NCBI GenBank assembly: GCA_964016885.1
Contig: OZ024753.1
Span: 12,586,001-12,650,000 of the forward strand
DNA from: Eledone cirrhosa
Taxonomy: Eukaryota
Reading direction: 5' to 3'
DNA length: 64,000 nucleotides
The position numbers and the translations under genes were made by a program. The notes under the pieces are model-generated. The model saw only the letters and a program-made list of their open reading frames with translations. It had not been told where the DNA came from and did not search any database. Shown here one piece after another: positions 30-47,119 of this stretch (position 1 is its first letter; the number at the start of each line of letters is the position of its first letter).

Positions 30-1442
30 ATGGAGATAGAGTTGGTCCTAAAAGACTATATGAAGAATATTCTCTTCATACGAAAGGACCGACTCTATGG
101 CAGCATTTCGGTCCTAACAAAAGACAAGGAAACGGCGGAGAAGCTTTCCATAAGCCCACTCTCATCGACAACATACAGCTTCTATCCCTCCTACATGGGT
201 AGAAGAACACAGAGAGTAAAAATACAAACAATGCTGCCCACAATGGACTTCTGGTGGGCTATTGCTGGCTTCATAGACATGGGCGAGGACACAGTGCTGT
301 CAATGGGGAAGGCATCCGGAGATGCGTTCCTGGGAATGGGCCTCGACCTACTAGTCCAAATGAGGCCCGAAAGAATAGCACAAATCCCGGATCGCATCTG
401 GCTGGATGAGCTCACCCCAATAGATATAATTGTAGAGGGGAGAAGACCAGCATGCTATTTATGCATGGAAAGGGGACACATTAAGGCTAACTGCCCGAAA
501 CGTGTCCCCCAAAAAGGACTATTGCCCATACCCACCACAAACAGTACACCAACACCACCCACCTCCAAAAATACACTAATACCACACACAGCAAACAAAA
601 TACAAACACCACCAAGCACATCACCACCACCAGCAGCAAACACAAGCTCGACACAAAAATCACCACCACCATCACCAACACAAACACCATCACCACCATT
701 ACCAACCACAAGCACGACACAAACAGCACCACCACCACTACAAAACGCATTCCAAACAAATAATAAAAAAAACAGCAACAAATCTACCCCTCCCGCAAAA
801 AAAAACCAGACACGACGTCCCTCCCACCTAGCGCTGAAGAGTTTCCCCCAACTTCTGAAGAAGAAGGAGGAGAAGCCTTCAGACAAGTTAAAAGAAAAAA
901 AAGAAAGCACACACCCAGCACACCACAAATAACCCACACACAAACACCAACTCCAATAAAAAACACCCCACCCTCAACAAACAAAAATAAATCTGCGCCT
1001 CCCCTCTCCGAAACATTGACAGCATCACAAAAAAAGACATTGCAATACACATATATAAATAAAGAAAACAAAAAACTGTTTAAATTAATAAACAATAGCC
1101 CTTTGGTGCAGACCGAAGGGCCAAACTTTATCTCAACAGAGAACTTCACCCATTTAAAAATGATAAAGGTCCCTCTGGACCTTTATCGTTCCTTAAAAGA
1201 ACAATTTAGACAGGACGTGAGCCCCCCCCCCCTGTTTAAAACCGTTAAATCGGGTCCTCTTGAAAGATTTCCCCATAACCTCCCCTCTCCCTGACACAAC
1301 TCCAAACACCCCAACCCAACCACACTCGGGCACCCCCACACCACCACAAAACATCCCTCCACCCAACACACCTGACGCCATGGAAATTACACAACCCGGG
1401 GAGGTAAGTGCTTTTCTTTCTTCACTTTCAACACCAAAATAG
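30..1442 (+). pseudogene. LINE ORF1 (nucleic-acid-binding, zinc knuckle), broken by frameshifts after ~790
   Basis: ORF 30..932 contains CYLCMERGHIKANC (CX2CX4HX4C) followed by a Pro/Thr-rich tract; Pro/Thr-rich coding continues in other frames (1016-1294, 1260-1442) across A/C homopolymer runs. Confidence 0.75.
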
Positions 1443-1447
1443 ATCAA

Positions 1448-4400
1448 TTGAGAGTTGGCTGTTTGAACGCGCGTGTCCTGGGCTCAGCTTGGAAGCAAGC
1501 AAAGCTACTAAGTGACCTCAGGTCACGAAGTATAGATGTGATGGTTGTTTGCGAGAGTCGGATCAGCAGCGTGCGACAGCTGGCTCCCGCCTTCGATGAA
1601 TTTGAGATGCACGCATCTCTCTGTCAACCCGGAGGCGGGGGGGGGGGGGGGGTTGCCGTACTGCTGGATAAACGTCTGGCTCTCGACGTACAGATTGTTC
1701 ACTCGGACCCGGGGGGTCGAATACTGGTGCTGGACGTCGGAGGCGGTGAAGGCGGGGCTTTCAGACTGGTCGGTCTTTATGCCCCCTTCGGGGCTGAAAG
1801 AGCCGACTTCTTCCAGCGTCTGGAGACTTTTCTAGGAACGTCGCGTTCCCTGCTTTTAGTGGGGGACTGGAATGGAATCCTAGATGCGCGTTGGGACTAT
1901 GCAGGGGCATGTCCCGATAGAGGGGGGTGTAGCAGCCTCAAGGGGTTACTCGATCGATTCGACCTGGTCGATAGATTTCGACTAGATTGTCCAACTGCGC
2001 CAACCTGGACCTGGGCAAACCGCAGTGGACAATCTAGATCGTACCTAGATAGGTTTTTGGTTAGGAGTAAGGATAGGGACGTATTTAGTTGTCCAGAATT
2101 GATCATGGTTGGCTATTCAGATCACAAATTAGTGACCTGCGTGGTCAACCTTGATAGAACGCATAGACAGGGTCCCGGTTACTGGAAGATGAACTTGTCC
2201 TTGCCGGCAAAGAAAGATTACAGGAACCGGATTAGTAGCTTAGTTAAGATGCGGTTGACGGGGGCGATTGTCAACAGTAGGTGGTGGGTATCTCTAAAGA
2301 GAGAGATTAGAGTAAGTTCGATAGGTTACAGTAAGGAACTAGCGGCGAATAGAAATAGGAAGGAAAGGGAGTTAACAGATAAACTAGAAGAGGCGATTAG
2401 GAGCGGAGACGTAGCCAGAGTGTTAGCGGCGAGAACGGCGTTGAGCCAGTTCTTCGACGCGAAGCACGAAGGCTGCGTTGTCCGAAGTAAAATACGTGCT
2501 TTAGGAAACGAGGGGACCAAAGCTGTGAGCTGGGCCCGCGTGACAGAAGCCAAGAGTGGGATTAAATCCACCATTCGGTCTTTGCGAGACCAGGATGGAC
2601 GGGTGATCCTTGAACCTGAGCGGATGTGCGAGGCCTTTCAAAGGCACTTTGCTCGACTGTTCGGAGGGGGCGGGGGGCCGGACGGGGATGTGGACTTCGG
2701 TCCATACCTCGACGGTCTACCGCGTCTTTCGAGCGGCGAAGCGGAGTGCTGCGAAAGGCCAATCACAGCCACTGAAATCGGGGAAGCGCTCAGCCAATGC
2801 AGCAGACGCAAATCTCCGGGTCTCGATGGTCTACCATACGAACTTTATTTAGCTATGCCGGTCTTGTTCTCCGAACTCCTCGAGGCTGTCTATTGCAACT
2901 GGCAACAGAACGGGAGAATTCCCTGTTCTGTGACCAAGTGCGTGGTCACGCTAGTGAGGAAGGACGAGAGCAAGGGGGACGACTTAAGTAACTTTAGGCC
3001 CATAACTCTGCTGAATGCAGAGTTACAGATTTTGGCCAAGGTGTTGGCGAAGAGGTTGGCGCTTGTGGTGGGTGGTTTGGTGGGAGACGCACAAACATGC
3101 GCTATCCCGTCCAGGTCCATTCACGACAAACTCCACCTCATGCGATACATCATAGAGAGGGTTGGCAACGAACCCGGCTTTGGTGGGGCCCTGATCAACT
3201 TGGATCAATCTAAGGCGTTCGATAGGGTCGACCATGGTTACCTGGATGCGGTGCTAGCGGCGGCGGGCTTCGGACCCGTTTTCAGGGGCTGGATTTCTGC
3301 CATGCACAGTGGCAACATCTACTCTAGGATTAAAGTAAACGGCTACCTCTCGGAGCCGTTTCAAATCACCCGGTCCATCAGACAGGGGTGCCCCCTCTCC
3401 TCCCTTCTGTACGTATTGACTCTCGAGCCACAGCTGCGGAAGTTGGAGTTGCTGCGGGGCATACCCCTGGAACCGGGATTGCACAAAGCGGTCTCGGCCT
3501 ATGCCGACGACGTAACAGTAATGGTGGCGGACGCCTCGGAAATCGGGGCGATCGCCATCCTACTGGAGGAATACGAAAGGCTGACGGGGGCTAGGCTGAA
3601 CCGGGACAAGTCAGTCGGTTTGCAACTCGGAACGTGGAGGGGCAAACCGATGCCGTTAGACGGTGTCGTCGGGCGGTGGACGGAGGGCCCGGTGAAGCTG
3701 CTCGGGGTCTGGTTCGGACAGGACCTCCAGGTGGAGAAGAATTGGGGCGAGGTGACGAGCAGGGTGTTTGCGCTGACCCAGAAGTGGGCCAAGTGCAAAC
3801 TATCACTGAAAGGTCGGGCGGAGGTGACGAACGCTTACATAGCGTCCGTCATCTGCTACCGCCTGACCGTCGTGCCTTGCCCCAAGGAAAAGATCACCAT
3901 CATGGAACGCATGCTCTTCCAGTTCCTCTGGAAGAAGCGGCCTCCCATGGTGAGGAGATCCATCTGCTGCCAGCACCCTTCGAAAGGAGGGCTGGGTATG
4001 CCGTGGCTGTTGATGCGTAGGCACGCATTGAGGCTACGGCATCTACAGGTATTCCTCACCGGTCAGCCGGTGTGGGCCCCGTTTGTGAGGCGAGCCTTCC
4101 CACAGCTCGTCTCGCTCACCGAGCTGCAATCCTGGGTGAAGCAAAGACCGAGAAAACTGGGCAACTGGCACACCGAGTGTGCCCAGGCGCTCACGGCTAT
4201 CTAGCAAGCGGACCCGACTGTCAGTGGAGAATCCACCTCGACATTCTATAGAGGGCTGGTGGCTAGCAGGGGCGACGACACCCTTGGAGAGTCGCTAGGC
4301 ATGGAGGAGGACGAACTGGCCAGCCTGTTCGGTAGAACTTTCGGCCCGGGACCCATGGACAACTTCCAGAGGTCCCTAGCCTGGCAGTTTTACCGGGGGG

Positions 4401-4882
4401 CTCTGCCCGTTCGAGAAAAGCTCTACAGACACGGGCGCCCGGGCAGGGATCCAGCGAAAAAGATCTGTCCCAGATGCGTGCGCGACGAGGAAACCGTTGC
4501 GCATGCACTGGTACACTGCCCGGGCGTTGGCGATCTGTGGGGCTACGTCGAACGACTGCTGTCGCGTGTGGAGCCGATTCGATTAACCGCCGAGTCTGTG
4601 GTGAACATCAAGCCGCCGCCTCCCTTCAGAAACGAAGCAGAGGCGGTCTTTCTGTGCGTAATAGCCATGATGAAAGAGGTTGTGTGGTGGACGCGCCTGA
4701 AAGGTCTGAGGTCGGGTGACTTTCTCTCCGGCCATCACCTGGTTTACTTCTTCCGATACCACTTCGGAAGAAGGATCAGGATGGAGAGAGAAGTGCTTGG
4801 CCCCAGACAGTTTTATGAAAGGTGGGTGAAAGAAGCGAGAATGGCTCGTGTAAATGGGCCTTCTCTCTACATTGTTCTGTAG
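1448..4882 (+). pseudogene. LINE ORF2: APE endonuclease + reverse transcriptase, one premature stop
   Basis: Motifs CLNAR, GDWN, YLDR, SDH (EN); SPGLDG, FRPITLLN, DQSKAFDRV, RQGCPLS, YADD (RT); CPRC..HALVHC. ORFs 1448..4204 and 4259..4882 share a frame; TAG at 4202-4204 corresponds to Trp in the related copy at ~44000 (ALTVLWQ). Confidence 0.92.
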
Positions 4883-6739: not shown

Positions 6740-7960
6740 CTGGTTTGGTCCAGACCTCCAGGTGGACAAGAACTGGAAGGTGATAAAGGGGGAAGGTGTT
6801 TGCACTCACCCAGAAGTGGGCTGAGTGCAAACTCTCCTTGAAAGGTCGAGTGGCGGTGGCGAACACGTATATAGCGTCCGTCATCTACTACCGTTTGACA
6901 ATCGTACCTTGTCCACGCGAATACCTCACCTAATTGGAACACCCACTCTTCAGGTTCCTCTGGAAGAAACAGGTTCCATTGGTGAGGAGATCCATCTGCT
7001 GTCAACACCATTCTAACGGAGGGCTGGGGATGCCGTGGCTGATGTTGCGCAAACACGCGCTGAGGCTATGCCATCTCCAGTTGTTCCTGACCGGCCAACC
7101 GGTGTGGCTGTGGTTTGTGAGACGAGCTCTTCTAGAACTCGTCTCACTAACTGGGTCAAGCGAAGACCGAAAATGGGCGCCTGGCACCTCGAGTGCCTTC
7201 ACGCGCTTACAGCCCTCTACCAAGCGGAAACGGCAATCAGCGGAGACTGCACTTCGACATTCTATAGGGGATTAGTGGCGGATAAGTGCGACGACGTTCT
7301 CGGAGAAAATCTAGGCATCGAGGAGGACGAACTGACCAGTCTGTTCGGGACGACTTTCCGTCTAGGGCCTATGGATAAATTCTAGAGGTCTCTGGTCTGG
7401 CAGTGCTACCGATGAGCTCTACCATTTCGAGACAAAAATCTACAGGTACGGACGCACTGGCAGAGATCCTGCCAAAAGGACCCGTCCAAGATGCGAGCAG
7501 AACATCGAAGTCGTTCTGCACGCAATTGTTCAGTGCCCAGGGGTGATCGACCTGTGGAATTATGTCGAACAGCTACTGTCACGTGTGGGACGCATCCAGT
7601 TGTCAGCCGAGTCCCTCGTGGGGATCACCCCGCCGCCTGCATTTAAGGATGAAGGAGAGGGGGTAAATTCGCTGAAAGGTGGGTGAATGGGCCGAGTGAA
7701 TGGGCCTTCTCTGTGCATAAACCTGTAGGTTGAGAAAGATAAACTGAGGGAAGACGGGAAGACCTACAAAACGAGTTCCTGGTGTTGAGGGTTGTTCTAG
7801 CCACGGTGTGTAAAACAACCCCGCAGTAACGGGACTTCGATTGTTTTATTTTAAATATAGTTTATTGTTATTCATCATTGTTAAAGATTTTAAGTAAAAC
7901 CCCGCCGTCACGTCTTGTAATGTCCCAATTGTGTACGCCCCTGTGGCAAATAAAGAAAGA
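6740..7960 (+). mobile_element. 5'-truncated, degenerate Tx1-family copy
   Basis: Translates to LFRFLWKKQVPLVRRSICCQH..GGLGMPWLML, homologous to ORF2 above; ends AATAAA followed by (CTAT)n. Confidence 0.88.
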
Positions 7961-8484: not shown

Positions 8485-8861
8485 ATACATTCATTCTATG
8501 AATTATCACTCATTACGGTAAATTTCAATATTCCGTTGCTGATATAAACACACACGTATCTACACTGCTATCAAATTAACATCATTGTTTCTTCTGAACG
8601 GATATTTATAAAGAATAGCAGACACTACTAAATGGTAATTTAATTCATAAAAGTTTAAACCTACGTCATAGTTGGCTCTCACTTGTTTTATATTCAATTC
8701 TATATATATTTTTATATTTTCATATACACACACTACACCTATACAATCGCTCAAACACAATTTGTTTGTGACATTCAATTATATATTTATAAATATATAT
8801 ATATTTATAAATATATATAACGGGCGACAGCGCATTAACACACATAAGAGCGATCACTTAG

Positions 8862-9830
8862 ATGGAACCACCCGTAGCAAAAGTACAAGGACACGTAATC
8901 GCCACCGTAACGTCCTATGGTTCCCCCCCCCCCTACTCTCGGAGTGTGGCCTCCAACATACCCCGGATATTCTTCGAACCCTTAGAGAAGAACTTCCCGC
9001 CCAACCATAGGTATAGAAAAATTCTTAATAGGAACAATATAAAAATATCCTTCTCTACTACCCCTAACCTAGCAGACATCATAGGAACAACGAACCACAG
9101 TAAGATCACCAAGACACAGCACCTCGACACAGACGCACCTACACCTGACAATAACTATATCGGCCTTAACAACTCCCTGGCAGCATCCAATAGTGTTGGC
9201 AACGGCATCCGCAGACACAACCGGAATGACCGCGAAGTGACTGGAGAACATGCAGAACATGCCGTGCGGAATAACAATCGCACCATCCCGCGTGCTGTGG
9301 GTTGTAATTGTGCTAACGACAGCTGCGGTAGCGTAGGTAACAACGTAGGCAGCAACAATGATAGCCTTACCGTGGGAAATAGACGGAACCGCGACAGAAA
9401 TTGCAACTGCCGCGACAGAGGACGCTGCCCCCTTAGAGGATACTGCTTGACTGATAGGGTTATATATAGATGCACTATTACTAGCCACAATAGCGTTAAA
9501 CATTATATAGGGGCCACCTCCGGCCCGTTCAAAATTAGGTTTCGAACACATCTCCACTCTTTCACAAATAGAAAACTAAGACACTCCACTTCGCTCGCGG
9601 ACTACATCACATCACTAAAGGACTCAAACATCAGCTTCTCCACGCACTGGGAGATTGTCGGCAGGGCTGCACCGTACAACTTCAAGAGGAAATGCGATCT
9701 TTGCCTCATGGAGCTCTACCACATCATAACTGCACCCCACGGGCTCATCAACAGCAGAGCTGAAACAGCGATAAGTTGTACACATCGCTTAAAAATGTCC
9801 TTCTTTAGATGGGTTAAGGATGAAGAGTGA
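8862..9830 (+). pseudogene. Penelope-like GIY-YIG endonuclease domain (C-terminal part of the PLE ORF)
   Basis: CNCR..CPL.GYC...VIY...HYIG..SGPFKIRFRTH.HSF...TSL..YI..LK...W.I...A.PY....CDLC..E...INSR.E...C.H. Confidence 0.85.
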
Positions 9831-10127
9831 AATAGTACACTGGATCTCCCTGCAACAAGTCTTAACACCCCGGCGGGCAGGCGTTGCAAAATAACACCCA
9901 GAAAACAATCCTTGCATACCAGACCCGGCCTCAGACAAACGGATGCGGCAAAAAAAAAAAAAAAAAAAAAAAATTATCCGGGAAAGACTGCCCTAACACC
10001 GGCCAGAGTTACCTCCCTTGACCTGCTGCAAAATCAAAACAAGATATTTTTGCGAGCAATGAATCTTGATGTAGATTTAACCCCCAAAACTCTTTCCGAA
10101 CTATATATGGAACACTTGTGATTATTT

Positions 10128-10170
10128 ATGCCCTTGAGAAGCCCAACTGGGCGAAACGTACGTAGGTGAT
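10128..10170 (+). ncRNA. Minimal type I hammerhead-like ribozyme, U3-A8 core variant
   Basis: TTGAGAA - gccc/aact/gggc (stem II) - GAAAC - gtac - GTA^ggtg; palindromic ACGTACGT stem III; homologues at 45252 and 47200. Confidence 0.7.
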
Positions 10171-10381
10171 ATTTTAAATAAACATGTTTTAACGGTCTAT
10201 TCTCCGATGTTTTACTTTCCCACGTGCTTACGCTCTGATAACTCACTAGCCCACTAAATATTAACACTTCGAATATTTAATACTGCCGGCACTAGTATCG
10301 AGCACCTTTGGCATACGCTACTTGGCAAATAACTATATGTATCACCTATCCCTCCTTTTTCTCTCTTTCTCGATACGTAAA

Positions 10382-10906
<525 letters not shown>

Positions 10907-11214
10907 TAAATTGAAACAAAATGAAAACGAAATTTCATTTCTCACTCTTAGTATGGCACTTACTTAAATGTAAGTATGCATGTATACGTACATACATATA
11001 TGTATACAGACGTACAGTAGCATGCACATATATATATATATATACACATATATATACATATGCATACAGGTACACATACATATATGCACGTATCAGTTTA
11101 GCGGCGCTTATTATAACGTCGCTTTGTTCGTTTGTAAACAAACTGAACAGCCTGAATTTATGCCATACGGTGTTAAGGCAACCACGTCACCTTTTTGTTC
11201 AACACTGACACAGG

Positions 11215-11259
11215 AACGATGTACTAGTTTCAAGCTTGTTAGCTATCATCAGCACCGTT
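11215..11259 (-). ncRNA. Minimal type I hammerhead ribozyme (array unit L1)
   Basis: Reverse complement reads aacggtg CTGATGA t agct aaca agct t GAAAC ta GTA catcgtt. Confidence 0.88.
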
Positions 11260-11499
11260 TACCCATCTGCCAGATAGTTGAACGTTCGAAAGTTTATACT
11301 TTCCTTATGAAAATTAACGGCTGAGCAGCCTAATTTGCATATTGAGTGAGTTAAATCGGTCAGGCATACCGAAAACGATAAATTGAAACAAAATGAAAAC
11401 GAAATTTCATTTCTCACTCTTAGTATGGCACTTACTTAAATGTAAGTATGCATGTATACGTACATACATATATGTATACAGACGTACAGTAGCATGCAC

Positions 11500-11532
<33 letters not shown>

Positions 11533-11694
11533 TATACATATGCATACAGGTACACATACATATATGCACGTATCAGTTTAGCGGCGCTTATTATAACGTC
11601 GCTTTGTTCGTTTGTAAACAAACTGAACAGCCTGAATTTATGCCATACGGTGTTAAGGCAACCACGTCACCTTTTTGTTCAACACTGACACAGG

Positions 11695-11739
11695 AACGAT
11701 GTACTAGTTTCAAGCTTGTTAGCTATCATCAGCACCGTT
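11695..11739 (-). ncRNA. Minimal type I hammerhead ribozyme (array unit L2)
   Basis: Identical to L1. Confidence 0.88.
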
Positions 11740-11884
11740 TACCCATCTGCCAGATAGTTGAACGTTCGAAAGTTTATACTTTCCTTATGAAAATTAACGG
11801 CTGAGCAGCCTAATTTGCATATTTAGTGAGTTAAATCGGTCAGGCATACCGAAAACGATAAATTGAAACAAAATGAAAACGAAA

Positions 11885-14800
11885 AGTAAGTGCCATACTA
11901 AGAGTGAGAAATGAAATTTCGTTTTCATTTTGTTTCAATTTATCGTTTTCGGTATGCCTGACCGATTTAACTCACTCAATATGCAAATTAGGCTGCTCAG
12001 CCGTTAATTTTCATAAGGAAAGTATAAACTTTCGAACGTTCAACTATCTGGCAGATGGGTAAACGGTGCTGATGATAGCTAACAAGCTTGAAACTAGTAC
12101 ATCGTTCCTGTGTCAGTGTTGAACAAAAAGGTGACGTGGTTGCCTTAACACCGTATGGCATAAATTCAGGCTGTTCAGTTTGTTTACAAACGAACAAAGC
12201 GACGTTATAATAAGCGCCGCTAAACTGATACGTGCATATATGTATGTGTACCTGTATGCATATGTATATATATGTGTATATATATATATATATGTGCATG
12301 CTACTGTACGTCTGTATACATATATGTATGTACGTATACATGCATACTTACATTTAAGTAAGTGCCATACTAAGAGTGAGAAATGAAATTTCGTTTTCAT
12401 TTTGTTTCAATTTATCGTTTTCGGTATGCCTGACCGATTTAACTCACTCAATATGCAAATTAGGCTGCTCAGCCGTTAATTTTCATAAGGAAAGTATAAA
12501 CTTTCGAACGTTCAACTATCTGGCAGATGGGTAAACGGTGCTGATGATAGCTAACAAGCTTGAAACTAGTACATCGTTCCTGTGTCAGTGTTGAACAAAA
12601 AGGTGACGTGGTTGCCTTAACACCGTATGGCATAAATTCAGGCTGTTCAGTTTGTTTACAAACGAACAAAGCGACGTTATAATAAGCGCCGCTAAACTGA
12701 TACGTGCATATATGTATGTGTACCTGTATGCATATGTATATATATGTGTATATATATATATATATGTGCATGCTACTGTACGTCTGTATACATATATGTA
12801 TGTACGTATACATGCATACTTACATTTAAGTAAGTGCCATACTAAGAGTGAGAAATGAAATTTCGTTTTCATTTTGTTTCAATTTATCGTTTTCGGTATG
12901 CCTGACCGATTTAACTCACTCAATATGCAAATTAGGCTGCTCAGCCGTTAATTTTCATAAGGAAAGTATAAACTTTCGAACGTTCAACTATCTGGCAGAT
13001 GGGTAAACGGTGCTGATGATAGCTAACAAGCTTGAAACTAGTACATCGTTCCTGTGTCGGTGTTGAACAAAAAGGTGACGTGGTTGCCTTAACACCGTAT
13101 GGCATAAATTCAGGCTGTTCAGTTTGTTTACAAACGAACAAAGCGACGTTATAATAAGCGCCGCTAAACTGATACGTGCATATATGTATGTGTACCTGTA
13201 TGCATATGTATATATATGTGTATATATATATATATATATGTGCATGCTACTGTACGTCTGTATACATATATGTATGTACGTATACATGCATACTTACATT
13301 TAAGTAAGTGCCATACTAAGAGTGAGAAATGAAATTTCGTTTTCATTTTGTTTCAATTTATCGTTTTCGGTATGCCTGACCGATTTAACTCACTCAATAT
13401 GCAAATTAGGCTGCTCAGCCGTTAATTTTCATAAGGAAAGTATAAACTTTCGAACGTTCAACTATCTGGCAGATGGGTAAACGGTGCTGATGATAGCTAA
13501 CAAGCTTGAAACTAGTACATCGTTCCTGTGTCAGTGTTGAACAAAAAGGTGACGTGGTTGCCTTAACACCGTATGGCATAAATTCAGGCTGTTCAGTTTG
13601 TTTACAAACGAACAAAGCGACGTTATAATAAGCGCCGCTAAACTGATACGTGCATATATGTATGTGTACCTGTATGCATATGTATATATATGTGTATATA
13701 TATATATATATGTGCATGCTACTGTACGTCTGTATACATATATGTATGTACGTATACATGCATACTTACATTTAAGTAAGTGCCATACTAAGAGTGAGAA
13801 ATGAAATTTCGTTTTCATTTTGTTTCAATTTATCGTTTTCGGTATGCCTGACCGATTTAACTCACTCAATATGCAAATTAGGCTGCTCAGCCGTTAATTT
13901 TCATAAGGAAAGTATAAACTTTCGAACGTTCAACTATCTGGCAGATGGGTAAACGGTGCTGATGATAGCTAACAAGCTTGAAACTAGTACATCGTTCCTG
14001 TGTCAGTGTTGAACAAAAAGGTGACGTGGTTGCCTTAACACCGTATGGCATAAATTCAGGCTGTTCAGTTTGTTTACAAACGAACAAAGCGACGTTATAA
14101 TAAGCGCCGCTAAACTGATACGTGCATATATGTATGTGTACCTGTATGCATATGTATATATATGTGTATATATATATATATATGTGCATGCTACTGTACG
14201 TCTGTATACATATATGTATGTACGTATACATGCATACTTACATTTAAGTAAGTGCCATACTAAGAGTGAGAAATGAAATTTCGTTTTCATTTTGTTTCAA
14301 TTTATCGTTTTCGGTATGCCTGACCGATTTAACTCACTCAATATGCAAATTAGGCTGCTCAGCCGTTAATTTTCATAAGGAAAGTATAAACTTTCGAACG
14401 TTCAACTATCTGGCAGATGGGTAAACGGTGCTGATGATAGCTAACAAGCTTGAAACTAGTACATCGTTCCTGTGTCAGTGTTGAACAAAAAGGTGACGTG
14501 GTTGCCTTAACACCGTATGGCATAAATTCAGGCTGTTCAGTTTGTTTACAAACGAACAAAGCGACGTTATAATAAGCGCCGCTAAACTGATACGTGCATA
14601 TATGTATGTGTACCTGTATGCATATGTATATATATGTGTATATATATATATATATATGTGCATGCTACTGTACGTCTGTATACATATATGTATGTACGTA
14701 TACATGCATACTTACATTTAAGTAAGTGCCATACTAAGAGTGAGAAATGAAATTTCGTTTTCATTTTGTTTCAATTTATCGTTTTCGGTATGCCTGACCG

Positions 14801-15661
14801 ATTTAACTCACTCAATATGCAAATTAGGCTGCTCAGCCGTTAATTTTCATAAGGAAAGTATAAACTTTCGAACGTTCAACTATCTGGCAGATGGGTAAAC
14901 GGTGCTGATGATAGCTAACAAGCTTGAAACTAGTACATCGTTCCTGTGTCGGTGTTGAACAAAAAGGTGACGTGGTTGCCTTAACACCGTATGGCATAAA
15001 TTCAGGCTGTTCAGTTTGTTTACAAACGAACAAAGCGACGTTATAATAAGCGCCGCTAAACTGATACGTGCATATATGTATGTGTACCTGTATGCATATG
15101 TATATATATGTGTATATATATATATATATATGTGCATGCTACTGTACGTCTGTATACATATATGTATGTACGTATACATGCATACTTACATTTAAGTAAG
15201 TGCCATACTAAGAGTGAGAAATGAAATTTCGTTTTCATTTTGTTTCAATTTATCGTTTTCGGTATGCCTGACCGATTTAACTCACTCAATATGCAAATTA
15301 GGCTGCTCAGCCGTTAATTTTCATAAGGAAAGTATAAACTTTCGAACGTTCAACTATCTGGCAGATGGGTAAACGGTGCTGATGATAGCTAACAAGCTTG
15401 AAACTAGTACATCGTTCCTGTGTCAGTGTTGAACAAAAAGGTGACGTGGTTGCCTTAACACCGTATGGCATAAATTCAGGCTGTTCAGTTTGTTTACAAA
15501 CGAACAAAGCGACGTTATAATAAGCGCCGCTAAACTGATACGTGCATATATGTATGTGTACCTGTATGCATATGTATATATATGTGTATATATATATATA
15601 TATGTGCATGCTACTGTACGTCTGTATACATATATGTATGTACGTATACATGCATACTTAC

Positions 15662-15665
<4 letters not shown>
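11885..15665 (+). mobile_element. Right arm of hammerhead tandem array: eight 472-474 bp units; putative non-LTR retrozyme
   Basis: CTGATGA cores at 12069, 12541, 13013, 13487, 13959, 14431, 14905, 15379 (spacing 472/474); units differ only in internal (TA)n length and one A/G site. Confidence 0.88.
12062..12106 (+). ncRNA. Minimal type I hammerhead ribozyme (unit R1; same motif in R2-R8)
   Basis: Stem I aacggtg/catcgtt (7 bp, one G-U), CTGATGA 12069-75, stem II agct/agct with aaca loop, GAAAC 12090-94, palindromic ACTAGT, predicted cleavage GTA^ after 12099. Confidence 0.9.
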
Positions 15666-16820
<1,155 letters not shown>

Positions 16821-17153
16821 TCATCATCATCATCATCAACGTTTAACGTCCGTGTTCCACGCTTGCATGGGTTTGGACGGGGGTTTTCCCACTTGAGGCA
16901 AGAGCGATTGTCTTGCTCGCATAGGACTGTCTGGCAGGTTTTCAACAGCTGGATGCCCTTCCTAACACCAACCACATTTACAGTGTGGGGCTGGGAGGTT
17001 TTTACCGTGTTGCCTACACGGCCACATTACAGCGTGGACTGTCTGGCGGGTTTTCTACAGCTGGATGCCCTTCCTAACACCAACCACATTTACAGTGTGG
17101 GGCTGGGAGGTTTTTACCGTGTTGCCTACACGGCCACATTACAGCGTGGACTG
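16821..17153 (-). mobile_element. SINE 3' portion with (ATG)n tail and an internal ~110-bp tandem duplication
   Basis: catcatcat tail followed by ggatgcccttcctaacaccaacca; 16924-17035 is repeated at 17036-17153. Confidence 0.6.
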
Positions 17154-23719: not shown

Positions 23720-24730
23720 GACTATGGTCATTGGAACAATTTGACTGCCTCGTGTGTCTCAAGACATGGGATGTATTGGTGGAAGCTTATGATCGTGCTC
23801 CTTGGGACACTTTGACTGCCTCGTGTGTCTCAAGACATGGGATGTATTGGTGGAAGCTTATGATCGTCCTCATTGGAACAATTTGACTGCCTCGTGTGTC
23901 TCAAGACATGGGATGTATTGGTGGAAGCTTATGATCGTGCTCCTTGGAACACTTTGACTGCCTCGTGTGTCTCAAGACATGGGATGTATTGGTGGAAGCT
24001 TATGATCGTGCTCCTTGGAACACTTTGACTGCCTCGTGTGTCTCAAGACATGGCATGTATTGGTGGAAGCTTATGATCGTGCTCCTTGGAACACTTTGAC
24101 TGCCTCGTGTGTCTCAAGACATGGGATGTATTGGTGGAAGCTTATGATCGTGCTCCTTGGAACACTTTGACTGCCTCGTGTGTTTCAAGACGTGATGTAG
24201 CATTCAAAGTGTTCCAATGACCACGATCATAAGATCGTGGTCATTGGAACACGTTGACTCCCTCAGGTGTCTCAAGACATGGGATGTATTGGTGGAAGCT
24301 TATGATCGTGGTCATTGGAGCACTTTGATTGCCTCATAATTCAAGATGTAGGATGTATTGATAAGATACAACTGACCGTTGTCCTTGGAGCACTTTGGCT
24401 GACTCTTCTGTCTCAAGACGTGGGATGTATTGATAAGATGCAACTGACCGTAGTCATTGGAACTCTTTGACTGCTCCATGTGTCTCAAGACGTGAGCTGC
24501 ATTGATAAGATGCAACTGACCGTTGTCCTTGGAATACTTTGGCTGGCCCTTGTATCATAGGACTCGGGAGCTTCTAACTCTAAGTGAAGTTGAAACTACG
24601 TATTAATAGATGCAACTGACCACAGTCATTAGAGAATTTTGGCGGCCTCTGGTGTCTCAAGACGTGGGATGTATTGATAGATGCAATTGACCGTGGTCAT
24701 TGGAGTACTTAGGTTGCCTCAGGCCTCTCA
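23720..24730. repeat. 71-bp minisatellite: ~7 homogeneous units, then a short inversion, then ~7 diverged units
   Basis: Unit start ttgg(a/g)aca at 23731, 23802, 23873, 23944, 24015, 24086, 24157. Confidence 0.92.
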
Positions 24731-24899
24731 TGACGAAGGAGCTTCTAATTCCAAGTCGTTAGCATTGACAAAAGCTGATGTTATACAAGTAGTTTATTGA
24801 TTGAACTAGCTAGCATCTAGACATGCCTTATATATGCAAATTGCTTTAACGAATATAATTAACTCATTATTAATACTGTGTTATGCACATATACCAATC

Positions 24900-25139: not shown

Positions 25140-28100
25140 GTTGCCCGTGAACCCTCACAACACCGTGGAGATCATACTTCACTGGTTCTCTTTGAACATG
25201 GCTGCGACTGTGGCTCCTGAGACCAGATTTGCTCAAGCAAATTTTTCCACACTTAGGGCACTTCAATTCAATGGAGACACCGATTGTTTCGAGAGATACA
25301 CTAGGGCATTGCTTACGCACATCGCGTTTGATTTTCTCGTGCTCTATGCGTCTGTCCTCAACATTATGGACCCCATCATTCACCATTCCACGCTAAGTTT
25401 CTCTTTCAAGAGTTTCTATCTCCGAGTCAGCCATCATCAAACCAGTTTCTTTTAACGAGTCCTTAACACAATCCTTGAATCGGAGCTTTGGCTTGTGAGG
25501 TGCTCTCTTACCCTCTCAAAGCTCGCCATACAAGAGTTGTTTTGGGATTCGATCATCCTCCATTCTGCAGAGGTGTCCGGTCCATCGTAAACGCCGTTGG
25601 TGGATGATACTCTCAATGCTCCGACACTCACTTCTCTCAAAGACCTCAACATCACCCACATGCATCTGCCACTTGATACCGAGCATATTTCTGATACACT
25701 GCTGGTGAAACCGTTCCAGTCTGTGGATATGCTGTTTGTAGGCAACCCATGTCTCACATGCATACAGCAAAGCTGACAGTACACATGCAGCATACAGCCT
25801 CACCTTGGTTCTCATTGTGATTCCTCGCCTGCACCAAAGACGGTCGTTGAGCCTTCCAAATGACCCACTTGCCTTACTAACACGTAGACCAACTTCTGCA
25901 TCCAGAGAGCAGGTCACACTCAGACTACTCCCCAAATATACAAAGTGTCAGCAGACTTCAGCTTTTGACCGTATATGTGTATGGAGGGTTCATTGAAAAC
26001 TTTATCCGGAGCAGGTTGGTACAGGACGACAGTCTTCTTCAGACTGATTGTCAGTCCCAAAGCACTGCACGCATTGGAAAAAGAATCCATAAGGTGTTCC
26101 ATGTCACTCTGGGAGTGTGCAAAGAGATCACAATCATATGCATATACAAATTCTCTGATCAAGGTACTCAGTACTTTAGTGTTGACAGTGCGACGCTTAA
26201 GGTTAAACAGCCCGCCGGAAGTGCGATATCTGAGATAGATACCGTGTTGACAATCCTTGAAGGCCACGAAGAACACCATCGCGAAATAGAAGGCAAACAA
26301 AGTCGGTGCAGGTATATCACCCTGCTTGACAACATTTTCAACCCAGATTGGCTCTGACTGTTTACCTCCAACATTCACCCATGCCCGCATGTCATTGTGG
26401 AAGAGTTTCAGAATGTTCACAAACTTTTCAGGACAGCCCAATCTCTCCAAAATAACTCACAAAGCCTTCCGATTGACGGTGTTAAATGCCTTGGTCAGAT
26501 CGACAAAAACTTGGTATAAGTCCATGCGCTGCTCAATGCATTTCTCTTGAAGTTGTTTGGCCGAGAAGATCATGTCAACAGTGCCTCTGCCATTCCTAAA
26601 GCCACATTGGTACTCAGGAAGTACCTCAACAACAATGTGCTGTATCAATCTGTCCAACAATATCCTGCACAAGATCTTCCCAGCCACAGATAGCAGTCAT
26701 TGTTGCCACAGTCATCTTTGGCTCCCTTTCCTTGGTAAAGTACCACCATCAATTCATCTTTCCAATCCTGTGGCACATCTTCTTCATTCCAAACATTCAC
26801 AAAGAGATCAATGAGGCGGTTTAAGACGTTATCACCAGCACACTTGAAAATCTCGGCACTCAGTCCATCCATTCCAGGTGACTTGCCGCTGTTTAATTTG
26901 GCAATGCTCTTCGCGACCTCATTAACTGAAGGAGGGTCAGCCATTTCCAGCGTTGTAGGTCTGGATGGAATCAACCGGATAAACTCATCATCAAATTCTG
27001 ATGGTCTGTTGAGAAGCTCATCAATGTGGTCATGCAACCTGATCAGGATTTCCTTCGGATTTCTAAACAATTCCTTGCCGTCCCCGGAGCGAAGTGGTCG
27101 GATCGTACACCTCTCTGAGCAGACTGTATAGGAGCTTTGTATCATGTCTATCTGAGGCCTTCTGGATTTCATCAGCCTTTTGGCTCTACCAAGTACCCTG
27201 CATGGCTCTGAATCGATGTTGCAAACGTGCCTTGATCTGCCTGAAGATCCAGTCACTCCCGTCAGAACGTGCCTCACACAACAATGATGTCAGCACTTTT
27301 TGTTTCTCTTCAAGCAAGGTCTGGATCACTGGATCATTTTCATCGAACCAGTCTTCATGCTTTCTATTGGTATGACCCAGAACTCCAGCACTAACATCAT
27401 AGACGGTTTTCTTCAATGATTCCCAAGTGTTTTCACATTCCATGGACTCTAGGGACCTCGACAGCTCAGCTCTGATTTTCTGTTTTCAGACGAGCCACGT
27501 TTAGTTTATTTGGAAGTGCAACCTTGTTCCCCCTTACTTTAGGCTTCACAACAAATTGAAACTTGGCGCGCACCAGACGATGATCAGTCCAACATTCCGC
27601 GCCTCACAATACACGAACCAACGTGATATCCCTGACATCACGTCTTCTCGTTAAAACGAAGTCAATAAGGTGCCACTTCTTTGAACCTGGATGCATCCAT
27701 GTTGTCTTATATTTGTCTTTCTGTTGAAAGAGCGTGTTCCCAAAAAGATCCATCTAAGTGCACATCTGCAACAGAAGTAGGCCATTGTTATTGCACTTAC
27801 CTACTCCATGCCTGCCCATCACACTCCAAGCTTCCCAGTCATTACCAACACGTGCATTAAAATCACGAGGATGGCCATCTTGTCTGCATAAGGTATACCA
27901 TGGATGACCTTTCTCAAAGACATGTAGAAACTTAGTGTTTCATCATCACAAGCACACATAGTAGGAGCGTACACATTGACCAGAGTCACAAAGCGGTTTT
28001 GAATCAGAGGGACTCTCATGGACATTATCCGATCATTGAATACACAAGGAAGATTTTCCAGCTTTGAGACGATTCCATCCTGACTGCAAATGCGACCCCT

Positions 28101-28945
28101 GTCTTTCTCCTACAACCCTCTGCTCCACCACTCCAATACAAGGTATGTCCTCCCTTCTGTTCTCTGAATTGACCCTCACCTGTCAATCTCGTTTCGGAAA
28201 GAGCAACGATGTCCATGCTATAGCGATTGAGTTCCCTCGACACCAAAGCAGATCTTCTCTCATGGCGAGTTTTACTGCTGGAATCCAGTAAAGTTCTTAC
28301 ATTCCAACAACCAATATTCAGAGGTTTGAACCTCCTTGCAGTTGTAGGATGACGACTGGGCCCATGCTGCGGTGCCATGGGACACCTGCCGGGCCAGACC
28401 CCTTCACAATAAGTTCCAGAGCCCTTACTGCCATTGACCTCACGGTTATCATCTGTCATCATAGAGTTTGGTGCACTTTTAGGCTATCGCCAACCACACG
28501 AACCAGTAACAGATCCTGAACAAGCGATGCCTGTGCTTTTAAGGTTTTTTTAAGTGGAGAAAGGCCTTGCACGCGACCAATCCCACTCTCTGCGCATCGA
28601 AAACACTACTCGAAAAGGAGCATTGGTCAACATCCTCGGATGCTTCCAAAGCTGAGGGTTTTTTTTTCAGAGTTTGCCTCTGCCAAAAAGGTGTTGTGAC
28701 AAGAACAGGAGGCCCTTCACTCCCAGGTAAAAAGAAAACAAAAGTACTATTTGGATGGCCGTTGACTCTGCTGAGTTCCTCCGCCCTTTGACGGGTCTTG
28801 TATTTCATCCCGCAGTGTGTCCAAAGATAACCCTCCTCACCAAGCAAACTTGGTGGTGTTGCCGGTTTAGTCGCCGACGACCCGACCATGAGTCAGGTAG
28901 TACTGCGTTACATGTTACCAGTAACACTCGAGAGCGGCCAGGATG
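25137..28945 (-). mobile_element. Full-length but degenerate RTE-clade (BovB-like) LINE
   Basis: EN: LNIGCWNVRTLLD..ERRSALVSRELNRY..DIVALSETRL; RT: KSPGMDG, QCGFRNGRGTVDMIF, FVDLTKAF, KQGD..APTLF, YAYD; RRLRWTGHL; terminal CPKC..H..H; many frameshifts; 3' end in (TA)n. Confidence 0.92.
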
Positions 28946-30075: not shown

Positions 30076-31779
30076 TGCTGCCTTCAATATATACACATAC
30101 ATATATATATATATATACACATTTATATATGAGCATAAATATATATATCTACATGCATACACACACATATATATATATACATACTCATATATTCACGCCT
30201 GTATATATATACACACACAGCATGTGCACGATGGGAGATTCAGCATATACATATACACACATTCGTAATAAAACTCTAATTACCAAAATAGGTATATGAA
30301 ATTATAATTACTAAAATCTAAGGTTTGCATCTTATTTCCAGAAACAGATCTACCTGTAATATATATGTTCACCAACTTGACATAAGTATATTTATTTCCA
30401 TAACATTTGTTCCGTATATCTGTTCAAAATTACTTTATATATAGAAACGGAATGAGAGATAACACACGAAATATATTTTGAGTGTGTTACCTCCCTTTCT
30501 TTCCGTTTGTATATTTTTTTATGTTTACAAAATTCTTCCAACTTTGTTTTTTATTATAGAGACATTAATGATTCTGAAGAGAGAAACTAAGAATGTAGAT
30601 GAAGTGTCTTAAGAAAGAAACTAAGAATCTAAATGAAGTGTCTCAAAAAAGAAACTAGGAAGTTTCTTTAGAATGAAAGTAAGAATGTAAATGAAGTGTC
30701 TAAAAATGAGAAACTAAGAATGAAGTGTCTTAAGAAACCAAGAATGTAAATGAAGTGTCTAAAAATGAGAAACTAAGAATGAAGTGTCTTAAGAAACCAA
30801 GAATGTAAATGAAGAGTAAAAAAAAAAATCTATATGAAATGTGTGATTTTGAAAGTGTAAAAAAAAAATCTATATGAAATGTGTGATATTGAAAGTGTAA
30901 AAAAAAAAAATCTATATGAAATGTGTGTTTTCGAAAGTGTAAAATAAATTCTATATGAACGTGTTTTAGAAAGTGTAACAAAAAAAATCTATTTGAAACG
31001 TCTGTTTTTGAAGTGTTTTGCTCAAGACCGGTCTGAAAATCGAACTCACGATTGTAAAGCCGAAGACTTTACATAAACACTTTGCGCATGCGCATTGCTG
31101 TGTACATTTTCGGCACATGCGTACTTAGGTAACTCTGTTTTGAAAAAATAAGGTGGCTGCTTGAAGAACTCCATGTTTTCCAACGCGGTTAAAAAAATTG
31201 GATTTTTACTATTTTTACGCAGGTAAAGTAAAGTTTTATTGAAACATTCTATGTTGATTTCCTTCCATAATGTCAACAATAATTGTTTAAACGGTAGGTT
31301 TGTTTAGTTTCTGCCATACCAAATAGCGTATTTTTTTTATTATTATTTAAGTTAGTAATTAATACATTTCTAGTTCCCTTCATGATATCGTCGTATTTTG
31401 TTGTCAATTCGTTTTGGAGGATTTGCTGCAGTCACACATGATGTTGATTGTTATATTCAGGTTATTAATATTAACCAGAATCTTTTGAGATCTGCCGTCT
31501 TTAGTCAGGGTAGATGTTACCCCCCTCTCATTTAGGTCATAAATCAAAAATTTTGAACGAATTTTTTTTAGACATAATCATCAAATATTAACTGTTGATC
31601 AGCTTTAATTAGATCGTTGTCACTTTAACTATTAACCTCCGTAACATAGAACCATTTACTGGCGATTTCCCGATGTTTATCGCTTTGATCGTTAAACCTT
31701 ATCTCATCAACGGTTGGATCATTCATTATCTCTGTTACAGTCTCCTTTGGCAGCAGTCCATTAATAATTTCCTCATCAT

Positions 31780-32390
31780 GTTTTTGAAAGTGTAAACAAA
31801 ATCTATATGAAATGTGTGTTTTTGAAAGTGTAAAAAAAATCTATATAACAAATGTGTGTTTTTGAAAGTGAAAAAAGAAATCTATATAACAAATGTGTGT
31901 TTTTGAAGGTGTAAAAAAAAATCTATGTAACAAATGTGTGTTTTTGAAGGTGTAAAAAAAAATCTATGTAACAAATGTGTGTTTTTGAAAGTGTAAAAAA
32001 AAATCTATATGAAATGTGTGTTTTTGAAAGTGAAAAAGAAAATCTATATGAAATGTGTGTTTTTGAATGTGTAAAAAAAAATATATATAACAAATGTGTT
32101 TTTGAATGAGTAAAAAAAAATCTATATAATATATATGTGTTTTTGAAAGTGAAAAAAAAATGTATATGAAATGTGTGTTTTTGAAAGTGTAAAAAAAAAT
32201 CTATATGAAATGTGTGTTTTTGAAAGTGTAAAAAAAAAAATCTATATCAAATGTGTTTTTGAAAGTGTAAAAAAAAAAATCTATATGAAATGTGTGTTTT
32301 CGAAAGTGTAAAAAAAATTCTATATGAAACGTGTGTTTTTGAAAGTGTAAAAAAAAAAATCTATATGAAACGTCTGTTTTTGAAGTGTTT
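31780..32390. repeat. ~38-41-bp AT-rich tandem repeat (shorter run at 30825-31010)
   Basis: gaaagtgtaaaaaaaatctatatgaaatgtgtgttttt repeated ~15 times. Confidence 0.9.
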
Positions 32391-37200: not shown

Positions 37201-37736
37201 AGAAAGTTTACATATTATATACGAGTTATGTTCACTATATTTTGACAAAAATGAATAAAGAAATCAAGAGACTAAATGAAGAAACAAGGAAGTTCTTTGG
37301 AAAGAGTGTAAGTAAATTGTCTAAAAAAGGAAACAATGAAGTTTCTGAAGTAATGAAGTGTTTAAAAAAAAGGACTAGGAATATAAATGAAGTTTTTTAA
37401 GAAAGTAAGAGTGTAGATGAAGTGTCTTAGAAAAAGAAACTAAGAATACGAATGAAGTTTCTTAAGAAAGAATGTAGATAAAGTGTCTAAAAAGAAACTA
37501 AGAATCTAAATCAGGTTTCTTAATAAAGAATGTAGATTAAGTGTCTAAAAAAAGAATCTAAATAGAGTTTCTTAAAGTGAGAGTGTAGTGTCTAAAAAGA
37601 AATTAAGAATCTAAATGAAGTGTCTAAAAAAAGAAACTAGGAATCTAAATAAAGTTTCTTAAGAAAGTGTCTAAAAAAAGAAACTAAGAATGTAAATGAA
37701 GTTTCTTAAAGAATGTAGATGAAGTGTCTGAAAAGA

Positions 37737-45775: not shown

Positions 45776-47100
45776 TCAACTGCGGCGTTTTCCGGGATGG
45801 GGGGGGGGGTTATCAGTCGGATAGGCATGGCTTACTATAACATTAGTCCTGTGATGGGGTTGATTTCTAGAGTTAGCGTTAAGGACGTAGGAGATTCTTC
45901 GGTTAAATCCGGCATCTACCATGGCTTTATTGTAGTAGTCAGCCGCTTGGTTGAAGATATCCTCGTTGGCGGAGAGCCTCAAGATCCTATGGGATATGCT
46001 ATATACTATGGAGTTGAGAGTTGACTTAGGGTGGTTGGATGGATAATTAATATATGATAGAATCTCACCGGGTTTATGATATGGCTTGTAAAGGCCCGTA
46101 CCCAACTCCAGGGTCACGTCCAGGAAGTTGACTATCTGGTGGTTGAGGTCTATAGTTACGGATAAGCAGTATGACTTGAATAACCTGTAGATGCGCTTGT
46201 TAAGGTTCTCTATCCTGCGGGGGCTATGGTTTCTAACGGTAAATAGGGCGTCGTCCCTATATACACCTCCTTGTAGGACCGCTATCTCGTCCCTAAGTCT
46301 ATGGAGGAGGTATATTCCAGCCAGGTCGGTCACTTGAGCTCAGTCACTGGACCCAATCGTGATATCGAAGTTATCAGGACGGTTGGTTCTGGTCCAAAGG
46401 GAGCCCTCGAAATGTATAATAGTTCTACGCGCAACTAGTACTATATCTATCTCTTTTTTTTAGTGAGGCTTGTGTTAGACCTAGTTAAGATAAAGGCCTT
46501 GTTTAAGAGTATGGGGGAGATAGAGGCATAGTTGCTGTCTATGTCAAACTGGATGAACTTTAGAGTTGCTTTATCAGGCAACTCGGTGAACCATTTAATC
46601 ACCTGGTCGGTGTTGCTCCAGAGGCAGACCTTAGCTTTGCTATTAAGTTCAAGTATTACTCAATCCAGGATCACTTTACTAATCTTACCTATATCTGATG
46701 TAGAGGGACATATTAATCTAATAGAGCGGCTTTCATTGAAGTTACATTTGTGATCCTTAAGAGAGAATCTACCTGTCATAGGGACATATGGTTTGGTGTA
46801 CTTATCTATGTCTAAGCTGTTAACTATATCCTTCCCTACTCTATTAATGTCATTTAAGGTACTAATGGGTGTTTTTTAAAATAATTTTTGTGTAATTCTT
46901 TATAAATGAATTGTTTGTACTTGCTCACGTCCATCTTATACAGCTTCTTGGTTTTGTCAGAGGTAACGAAGATGTGTAGGTCCTTCTTGATGGTGGTGAT
47001 GAGTGCGTCCGGGGATGTTAGAATAGATTATTGCATCGGCGTTTATTCTTAAAATTAATGTTCTGATCAGCTTTAGCAGGTCCTCCTCAAAGGAGTCTAG
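45776..47100 (-). pseudogene. Penelope-like (Naiad-type) reverse transcriptase, disrupted
   Basis: LKDHK.NF, RLICPSTSDIGKISKVILD, FIQFDI, FDITIGS, GVYRDDAL, VNFLDVTL, YKPYHKP, YIN..SNHP. Confidence 0.85.
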
Positions 47101-47119
47101 CAAGGTGATGTGAGGTGGA

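Follow-up and report, generated by a model that had tools for sequence, protein, structure and literature searches.

A two-armed array of hammerhead-bearing units

The window, by which we mean the whole 64,000-nt stretch of DNA analysed here, contains ten copies of a non-coding unit at 10906-15666, directly downstream of a truncated Penelope-like element (PLE) that we call PLE-A (Table 1). The array is one insertion made of two divergent arms, 8.0 units on the plus strand and 2.06 units on the minus strand, that meet in a head-to-head inversion at 11884. Unit identity is 98 to 100% across the ten copies, GC content is about 0.36, and unit length ranges from 472 to 480 nt, with a single minus unit at 480 nt. 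The longest ATG-initiated ORFs in a unit trimer encode 48 aa on the plus strand and 114 aa on the minus strand. Both 3' ends run into (TA)n, and the ends are internal sites of the unit joined directly to these tracts, with no LTR-like layout. A16G, a difference found only in plus units 3 and 7, recurs with a four-unit period.

These values agree with the original prediction of almost identical units that lack a credible ORF. Its ten-unit tandem survives as ten near-identical units, though not as a single head-to-tail array, and its size of 472-474 nt matches the cut-to-cut spacing on the plus strand but not the 480-nt minus unit. That first reading had missed that the two arms are inverted, that the target is (TA)n, that the 3' ends are fixed at two sites, and that there is a link to Hydra-clade PLEs.

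Table 1. Positions in the window of the array, its ribozyme motifs, and the neighbouring element. S and L denote the short and long start sites.
Feature	Position	Strand	Remarks
PLE-A, separate element, 5'-truncated copy, Hydra clade by motifs	8820..10385	+	directly upstream of array
PLE-A ORF with GIY-YIG end	8862-9830	+	
PLE-A hammerhead variant, U3-A8 core	predicted cut after 10164	+	
PLE-A's own S site and L end	10225 (S), 10385 (L)	+	
Left (TA)n tract, insertion target	10385..10908		common to 3' end of upstream PLE-A copy
Minus arm, 2.06 units	10906..11884	-	unit position 290 to 316; 3' end 10906 = L start site
Two minus hammerheads	11213..11743	-	core starts 11732, 11252; predicted cuts 11702/11701, 11222/11221
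Head-to-head junction of arms	11884		one base common to both arms
Plus arm, exactly 8.0 units	11884..15666	+	unit position 257 to 257; 3' end 15666 = S start site
First plus-unit type I hammerhead with extended helix I	12058..12108	+	CUGAUGA core 12069; predicted cut after 12099 (GUA)
Remaining plus core starts	12541, 13013, 13487, 13959, 14431, 14905, 15379	+	
Predicted cuts of the eight plus hammerheads	after 12099, 12571, 13043, 13517, 13989, 14461, 14935, 15409	+	spacing 472 or 474
Predicted cut-to-cut monomer, 472 nt, non-coding	12100..12571	+	strongly self-paired, z -8.7, TA hairpin contributing
Degenerate (TA)n long hairpin within unit	12232..12354	+	length differs among units and copies
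59-nt tail, S site (unit position 257) to L site (316)	12357..12415	+	bounded by the two putative reverse-transcription starts
Rare variant A at unit position 400 (u400A)	12499	+	present in all ten units, both arms
Right (TA)n tract, other target half	15666..16821		

The ribozyme motif and its conservation

All ten units carry AACGGTG-CTGATGA-T-AGCT-AACA-AGCT-T-GAAAC-TA-GTA^CATCGTT, in which ^ is the predicted cut. A type I descriptor matches the window exactly at these ten sites and gives 0 matches in 20,000 Markov resamples of the unit, confirming the complete type I hammerhead that had been proposed for every unit. Helix I has 6 to 7 bp plus an extension, helix II has 4 bp, and helix III is short and palindromic; these sequence features place the ribozyme among the canonical metazoan type I hammerheads as PMC4209133 defines them. 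The earlier label "minimal" does not fit: the PLE "min-HHR" described in that paper has no helix III, a helix II of 7 to 8 bp, and a short helix I.

No hammerhead reaches the gathering level in Rfam (best match Hammerhead_HH9, 18.5 bits, E = 0.11, gathering score 52), and the miRNA-like matches were set aside as noise from the TA hairpin. When folded in isolation, the 44-nt motif does no better than shuffled sequences (z = -0.79). The case for a hammerhead therefore rests on the core motif and on its conservation in the family. In a linear 307-nt context, the active fold lies 2.2 kcal/mol above the minimum.

For conservation, we scored variants that recur in at least four of 63 loci picked independently of the motif. 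Such variants occupy 0 of 12 core positions, 1 of 22 stem positions (a G-C to G.U change), and 76 of the 285 remaining ones (Fisher p = 0.001, with positions that are not independent), a pattern that indicates that the ribozyme core is under selection. The preferential conservation of the core looked for across the family is present, and 96.7% of cells are paired. Stem covariation is thin: one pair has changed on both sides (G.U to U.G), a count reached by 247 of 500 shuffles.

Weak cleavage activity is to be expected from the U.U pair that forms the foot of helix II and from a helix III that is almost absent. Both have parallels among axolotl ribozymes, helix III in HHR_Amex1, which is palindromic and dimer-dependent, and the U.U base in HHR_Amex2 (PMC7229834). 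Among Xenopus dimers, only one of nine is reported as cleaved in vitro (10.64898/2026.07.22.740005). Array L064 has a predicted non-cleavable GUG site and yet comprises at least 11 units.

Insertion ends across the family and the link to Penelope-like elements

The hammerhead core has 11,797 exact matches genome-wide, so that at least that many hammerhead copies exist, and the tail motif has 23,296; controls gave 0 for each. Copies are dispersed as monomers, dimers, and multimers, with arrays on many contigs, and about 800 insertions are young and near-identical. The array almost certainly belongs to a non-LTR retrozyme family, as first proposed, with a non-coding tandem unit, one conserved type I hammerhead in each, and thousands of dispersed copies. 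It shares with the metazoan non-LTR retrozymes of PMC7229834 a low GC content and a self-paired monomer besides these traits. Cleavage and circles are shown for the retrozymes of that paper; in the present family both are predicted from genomic sequence.

Insertions of the family end at two fixed internal sites, unit positions 257 (S) and 316 (L), one per arm; we counted 830 L-end and 718 S-end junctions. When 41 two-arm junctions were taken in, 16 could not be classified, and 24 of the 25 classifiable insertions combine one S end with one L end, the last being an S+S pair. For 51 of 100 young L ends, a divergent S partner lies no more than 12 kb away; L-L, S-S, and other arrangements do not occur, and the remaining 49 L ends have no exact-match partner. 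Wherever an arm opposite a young L end is visible, it stops at 251-257 (10 of 10). The young paired insertions have a median length of 1,286 bp, about 2.7 units. An inverted, 5'-truncated arm together with a tail on one end is, as read from these sequences, the "tail" anatomy of PLEs.

Two PLEs of this genome share the setting. The 927-aa ORF of PLE-A and the 821-aa ORF of PLE-B contain RWK (RWT in PLE-B), DKT, a CxCX5C linker, and CxxC and CxH around conserved E and N, and both elements have a GIY-YIG endonuclease at the C terminus, a hammerhead, and (TA)n as target, as found at both ends of retrozyme insertions. Compared by motif with the descriptions in PMC8557442, they are Hydra-clade PLEs; a Pfam search returned no match for either. 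PLE-A carries its endonuclease at the C terminus, and the label "Naiad" was dropped for that reason. The PLE-A RT domain, used as a query, matched the PLE-A family only. The sole relative of PLE-B with a name is a protein from Argonauta hians, with 36% identity. PLE-B is young and abundant, with 45 copies identical over 128 aa, 15,740 hammerhead matches, and an intact copy at L208. The S+L anatomy occurs in PLE-A (4 of 4 pairs) and in the PLE-B loci L208, L211, L212, and L213, L207 having no clear assignment. Tails measure about 90 nt in PLE-B, 160 nt in PLE-A, and 59 nt in the retrozyme.

At 4 of 113 independent loci, the retrozyme is directly fused to PLE-B or a PLE-B-like element. L102 joins a retrozyme S end to a PLE-B L end, and L105 does the reverse; the fusion at L011 can be read in more than one way, and at L243 the fused partner is another element with a hammerhead. 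Such fusions could also stem from nested insertion plus deletion. Further PLE neighbours were not accepted as fusions and were counted as nested, with (TA)n in between at L029, L044, L056, L076, L120, L152, L155, and L156, and other sequence in between at L083. The unit resembles neither PLE-A nor PLE-B above the level of shuffles; at least four other PLE families are known as fragments. PLE-A was rejected as the parent of the retrozyme, with neither sequence similarity nor fusions to it, but because it is about 25 times rarer than PLE-B (640 versus 15,740 matches) the absence of PLE-A fusions says little.

The Hydra-clade PLEs described in PMC8557442 and PMC11167929 likewise insert into (TA)n, form partial tandems, and have an inverted arm that is 5'-truncated, a tail at only one end, and two internal reverse-transcription starts with a hammerhead upstream of them. 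The retrozyme differs in having no ORF, in its start sites 257 and 316 nt after the predicted cut, and in its 59-nt tail, against the 30-40 bp described as typical. The start site was equal between strands in vitro (PMC11167929), but in the present family the arms of an insertion nearly always differ in the site they use. Integration of the PLE type is very likely on these grounds, and PLE-B is the leading candidate for the helper, at about even odds.

Template and mechanism of insertion

The array itself bears on the template. The variant u400A occurs in 17 of 10,473 matching copies genome-wide, the other 10,456 having T, and outside the array of the window it is confined to seven single units at seven loci, with no multi-unit source elsewhere in the assembly. 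Its presence on all ten units in both arms favours repeated copying of one monomer. Across the family, 213 pieces cross the predicted cut site, and of 100 arm 5' starts not one coincides with it; nor do 5' ends pile up there, the nearest of 27 starts in the young set lying at unit positions 465 and 4. Of the 51 young paired insertions, 44 exceed 600 bp, compared with the 573 nt obtainable from single passes over cut linear monomers. The template was probably a monomer, either a circle or one re-copied end to end. The recent reverse-transcription origin of the original prediction is upheld by the two-arm ends joined to (TA)n, the L- and S-end junctions, and u400A; for its rolling-circle part, u400A in ten units and arms that run through the cut site are indirect support.

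We consider it unlikely that the same PLE machinery, with the same start sites, instead copied a linear multimeric RNA, left uncleaved, that an array already present had produced, with no circle needed and a hammerhead that acts at another step or is rarely used. The free crossing of the cut site fits such a template equally well, a weak helix III and a U.U pair suggest slow cleavage, and a lizard PLE used mainly unprocessed RNA in vitro, with cleavage dispensable and hammerhead mutants inserting normally (PMC11167929). The four-unit period of A16G in the plus arm, which one monomer cannot give, also fits multimer copying. This account, however, needs a source of at least eight u400A units, and the assembly has none outside this array; array-wide variants, moreover, recur in the young arrays L220, L228, L230, and L235, and the ribozyme core is under selection.

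A less probable account is that a short PLE-type insertion of one to four units per arm grew by DNA-level duplication, through unequal crossover or slippage, so that the eight-unit arm is a young satellite. One doubling of a four-unit block would explain both the exact 8.0 units and A16G in units 3 and 7, only 3 of the 51 young paired insertions reach 4.7 kb, and such a model has been proposed for retrozyme arrays (10.64898/2026.07.22.740005). Near-identical young insertions are nevertheless multimers as a rule, each of the inverted arms here is multimeric and carries the rare variant, and differences among units of older arrays are mostly singletons; duplication could explain part of the length but not the origin. 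An assembly artefact in repeat number or inversion, or a chance motif in a satellite, is very improbable despite the near-perfect array, its long TA flanks, and the lack of a significant Rfam match, given that the array's ends coincide with the two fixed sites of the family, one S and one L as expected, that the units differ slightly, that thousands of copies are dispersed, and that the descriptor never matched a resampled unit.

We therefore favour, with a probability of roughly 65%, a non-autonomous retrozyme that a (TA)n-targeting Hydra-clade PLE mobilises in trans. Tandem retrozyme copies would be transcribed, and hammerhead pairs joined through the palindromic helix III would cut the RNA into 472-nt monomers that are then circularised, a step suggested by the selection acting on the motif and by the parallel with retrozymes of mussel and axolotl. 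The PLE protein would cleave a (TA)n tract on both strands, and the 3' ends so freed would prime reverse transcription within the RNA, one from site 257 and its counterpart from site 316. Here the fixed ends, the one-to-one pairing, and the TA target come from genomic DNA, and the enzymology comes from the lizard PLE in vitro (PMC11167929). Each enzyme would then lap the monomer, in this insertion 8 and 2 times, and the two cDNAs would be linked head-to-head at a point that varies. The genomic copies do have multimeric arms that read through the cut site, and a rare variant spans this whole insertion; a circular template may be behind these features.

A more specific version is tentative. The ribozyme circle, with no detectable kinship to its helper, may bring its own two start sites to replace those of the Hydra-clade Penelope protein. 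The protein may form an asymmetric pair whose subunits start at different sites, the first at the short and the second at the long one. Each would lap a single circle several times, and the protein would sometimes switch between its own mRNA and the circle, leaving S+L hybrids. If so, the genome holds a record of rolling-circle reverse transcription and names the enzyme that performs it.

By its sequence, the family is of a known kind, the animal non-LTR retrozymes already described from a mollusc (mussel, PMC7229834), here with unusually clear mechanistic footprints. A literature search found neither a cephalopod retrozyme nor this insertion anatomy in any retrozyme, although the family may already be catalogued in Repbase or Dfam; the giant squid genome has 235 Rfam-type hammerhead matches (PMC6962438). 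In PMC7229834, whose main text lacks the words "inverted" and "cephalopod", we saw no two-arm insertions, two fixed 3' ends, or (TA)n target. That paper proposed PLEs as the mobiliser of retrozymes, and both the circular template and the PLE helper are proposals there and in 10.64898/2026.07.22.740005. In the latter, arrays of vertebrate retrozymes co-occur with endonuclease-bearing PLEs whose machinery they are proposed to use. The PLE link there is pLTR similarity, in that known elements, PLEs in nearly every case, have homology to 24 of the 57 Xenopus families, whereas here it consists of insertion anatomy and fusions; that study included no mollusc, and its text contains neither "tail" nor "template". 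Non-autonomous elements of the Chlamys type, MRC1 among them, are similar at the 3' end to their autonomous partners, and that clade is described without hammerheads (10.1101/2021.04.23.441226).

The near-strict pairing of one short with one long end constrains models of Penelope integration generally, and the family offers test material in its two mapped start sites, its target, a young intact candidate enzyme (PLE-B), and its many young insertions. The unit had been called longer than known ones; at 472 nt it is somewhat longer than the 150-450 bp given in PMC7229834 but lies within the 51-972 bp range of 10.64898/2026.07.22.740005.

Anatomy of the window insertion and its fixed ends

The repeats in the window, G000:C13:12586001-12650000, were originally predicted to form a ten-unit tandem array with one hammerhead per unit. 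All ten motif copies are present, but not as a simple tandem: eight plus and 2.06 minus units head away from a one-base junction (11884) as two arms. Unit positions are numbered from the predicted cut, with 12100 as position 1. Differences among the ten units are limited to TA-tract length, two minus-arm changes, and A16G (unit position 16), which is carried by plus units 3 and 7.

Features of the window
Feature	Position	Strand	Remarks
Plus arm	11884-15666	+	eight units; starts and ends at unit position 257
Minus arm	11884 down to 10906	-	2.06 units; starts at unit position 290, ends at 316
(TA)n tracts	10385-10908; 15666-16821		one beyond each arm's 3' end
PLE-A, truncated copy	8820-10385	+	directly upstream of array; S end 10225, L end 10385
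PLE-A-related RT fragment	45776-47133	-	older, broken; 63% identity
Hammerhead-like cores	22124; 22446; 50260; 51220	+; +; +; -	isolated; unrelated to array
L1/Tx1-like LINE	1376-4882	+	942-aa frame, endonuclease and RT domains; possible ORF1 before frame
Degraded L1/Tx1-like relatives	7017-7385; 43706-44851	+; -
Broken LINE	25516-28483	-	several frames; presumably RTE-like
Minisatellites	23731-24735; 30573-32388; 36372-40270		71-bp array and 39-40-bp arrays; 39-40-bp array at 37738-40270 has 63.6 copies, strong G skew

Exact genome-wide matches number 11,797 for a 32-nt core pattern and 23,296 for a 26-nt tail motif, against 0 for controls in both cases, and scored family copies are 82 to 100% identical. 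Family 3' ends fall at unit position 257 (short, S) or 316 (long, L), mostly joined to (TA)n, and the young subfamily that includes the window array has 718 exact S-end and 830 exact L-end junctions. Of 41 divergent junctions in 67 loci, 16 were unclassifiable; of the 25 with two assignable ends, 24 pair S with L, and one, with a degenerate second end, is S+S (L100). In 30 loci seeded on the young L end, the opposite end is visible in 10, three of them already in the 67-locus set, and lies at 251-257 in 10/10. Further, when the first 100 young L ends on contig C1 were compared by coordinates only, 51 faced a divergent S end no more than 12 kb away and 49 lacked an exact-match partner; L-L, S-S, and other arrangements each numbered 0. 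These 51 paired insertions span a median of 1,286 bp, and 3/51 reach 4.7 kb.

The part of 10.1101/2021.04.23.441226 consulted describes the same pattern in Penelope-like elements (PLEs): one arm is inverted and truncated, and only one of the two ends bears a tail. The in vitro work of PMC11167929, in the sections seen, attributes it to a pair of internal start sites together with both-strand cutting of AT-rich DNA.

The predicted hammerhead and the class of the element

A type I descriptor recovers exactly the ten units (0/20,000 resamples), as originally predicted. By the definition in the available text of PMC4209133, the motif sequence corresponds to a canonical metazoan type I ribozyme, not a "minimal" one. 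Rfam gave zero gathering-level matches and, for the hammerhead, only a sub-threshold HH9 match of 18.5 bits. Folding of the isolated motif is no better than that of shuffles, and the computed active fold lies 2.2 kcal/mol above the minimum. With its palindromic helix III, the predicted hammerhead would need a dimer. At the base of helix II, the U.U pair resembles that of axolotl HHR_Amex2, as presented in the part of PMC7229834 consulted.

Conservation was scored over 63 loci chosen without regard to the motif, counting variants that recur in at least 4 loci. Such variants affect 0/12 core, 1/22 stem, 6/18 free or wobble, and 76/285 other positions (Fisher p 0.001, with positions non-independent owing to subfamily structure), and the single stem variant is G-C to G.U. 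Pairing is kept in 96.7% of cells across 34 distinct sequences (35 aligned, mostly from 58 variants of the conservation set). Stem covariation is weak, however, because one pair alone changes on both sides. The four isolated cores in the window failed the strict type I descriptor and are probably ends of other PLE families.

The proposal of a candidate retrozyme holds: the element shows all the testable characters of metazoan non-LTR retrozymes set out in the text of PMC7229834 consulted, and therefore belongs to that known kind, already reported there from a mollusc. A PLE origin of such retrozymes has recently been argued for (10.64898/2026.07.22.740005, seen in part). The literature searched yielded no two-arm, two-site anatomy in a retrozyme, no retrozyme hybrid with a named PLE, and no insertion-wide rare variant as a monomer-template sign, although supplements, Repbase, and Dfam could hold records.

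Template of reverse transcription

Single passes over cut linear monomers would give at most 573 nt, whereas 44/51 paired insertions exceed 600 bp. The cut site is crossed by 213 aligned pieces, and 0/100 internal 5' starts fall on it (some loci overlap). The template was therefore circular, a monomer copied more than once, or a multimer left uncut. Position 400 is A in 17 matches genome-wide and T in 10,456; ten of the 17 u400A matches are the window units, in both arms, and the other 7 are single units at 7 loci. Because the assembly holds no multimeric u400A donor outside the window array, sequence comparison favours repeated copying of one monomer, although such a donor could be absent from the assembly. 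Within each of the other arrays, the units belong to one subfamily, and most of their differences are singletons. Against a monomer template, the four-unit A16G period points to a subsequent doubling or to a template of four units, the long array L064 has a non-cleavable site, and a lizard PLE did not need cleavage, according to the sections of PMC11167929 seen.

The L064 array (L064:3879-9831, G000:C3; at least 11 units, cut site GUG, predicted inactive) begins directly after a hammerhead fragment of PLE-B. A short two-arm u400A insertion (L023:1437-1848, G000:C4), identical to the window array over the searched 225 nt, is possibly its daughter or sibling.

Penelope-like elements and fusions

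PLE-A and PLE-B ORFs both show, by motif reading, the Hydra-clade motifs in section 11 of PMC8557442 (seen in part). PLE-A is an active PLE with a 927-aa ORF, and its two-arm copies found are S+L in 4/4. Its tail is 160 nt, and a U3-A8 pair replaces C3-G8 in its hammerhead, apparently family-wide; a motif just downstream has 640 exact matches. PLE-B is a very young Hydra-clade PLE with an 821-aa ORF and a hammerhead (15,740 matches), an S end about 43-47 nt and an L end 134 nt past the cut, and 45 copies identical over 128 aa. Many intact 820-821-aa ORFs, with 3' UTRs of 1.1-1.25 kb, occur in L208:3628-7615 and relatives. Its one named relative is an Argonauta hians protein (36% identity). A search with the PLE-A RT domain returned 42,058 RT candidates genome-wide, tblastn of all fetched loci found several PLE families besides PLE-A, PLE-B among them, and Hydra-clade PLEs seem to make up a large part of the genome.

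The unit resembles PLE-A and PLE-B no more than shuffles do. At 4/113 independent loci, however, it is fused to PLE-B or a PLE-B-like element without intervening TA. At L102 a retrozyme S end is combined with a PLE-B L end, and at L105 the reverse. At L172 the retrozyme sequence is of an old subfamily and is joined to an old PLE-B-like ORF (77% identity); the case of L011 is ambiguous. Our reading of these fusions is that the template was switched inside a single particle. For L105 and L011, a nested insertion with a subsequent deletion is about as good an explanation. At L243 the retrozyme is fused to a different hammerhead-bearing element. That third, TA-ending element (L243:1260-1568, oriented copy) has a long helix II and lies head-to-head with a retrozyme L arm. 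An RT fragment with a YVDD motif, which we take to be probably a PLE of another clade, adjoins a retrozyme array at L065:6600-7260.
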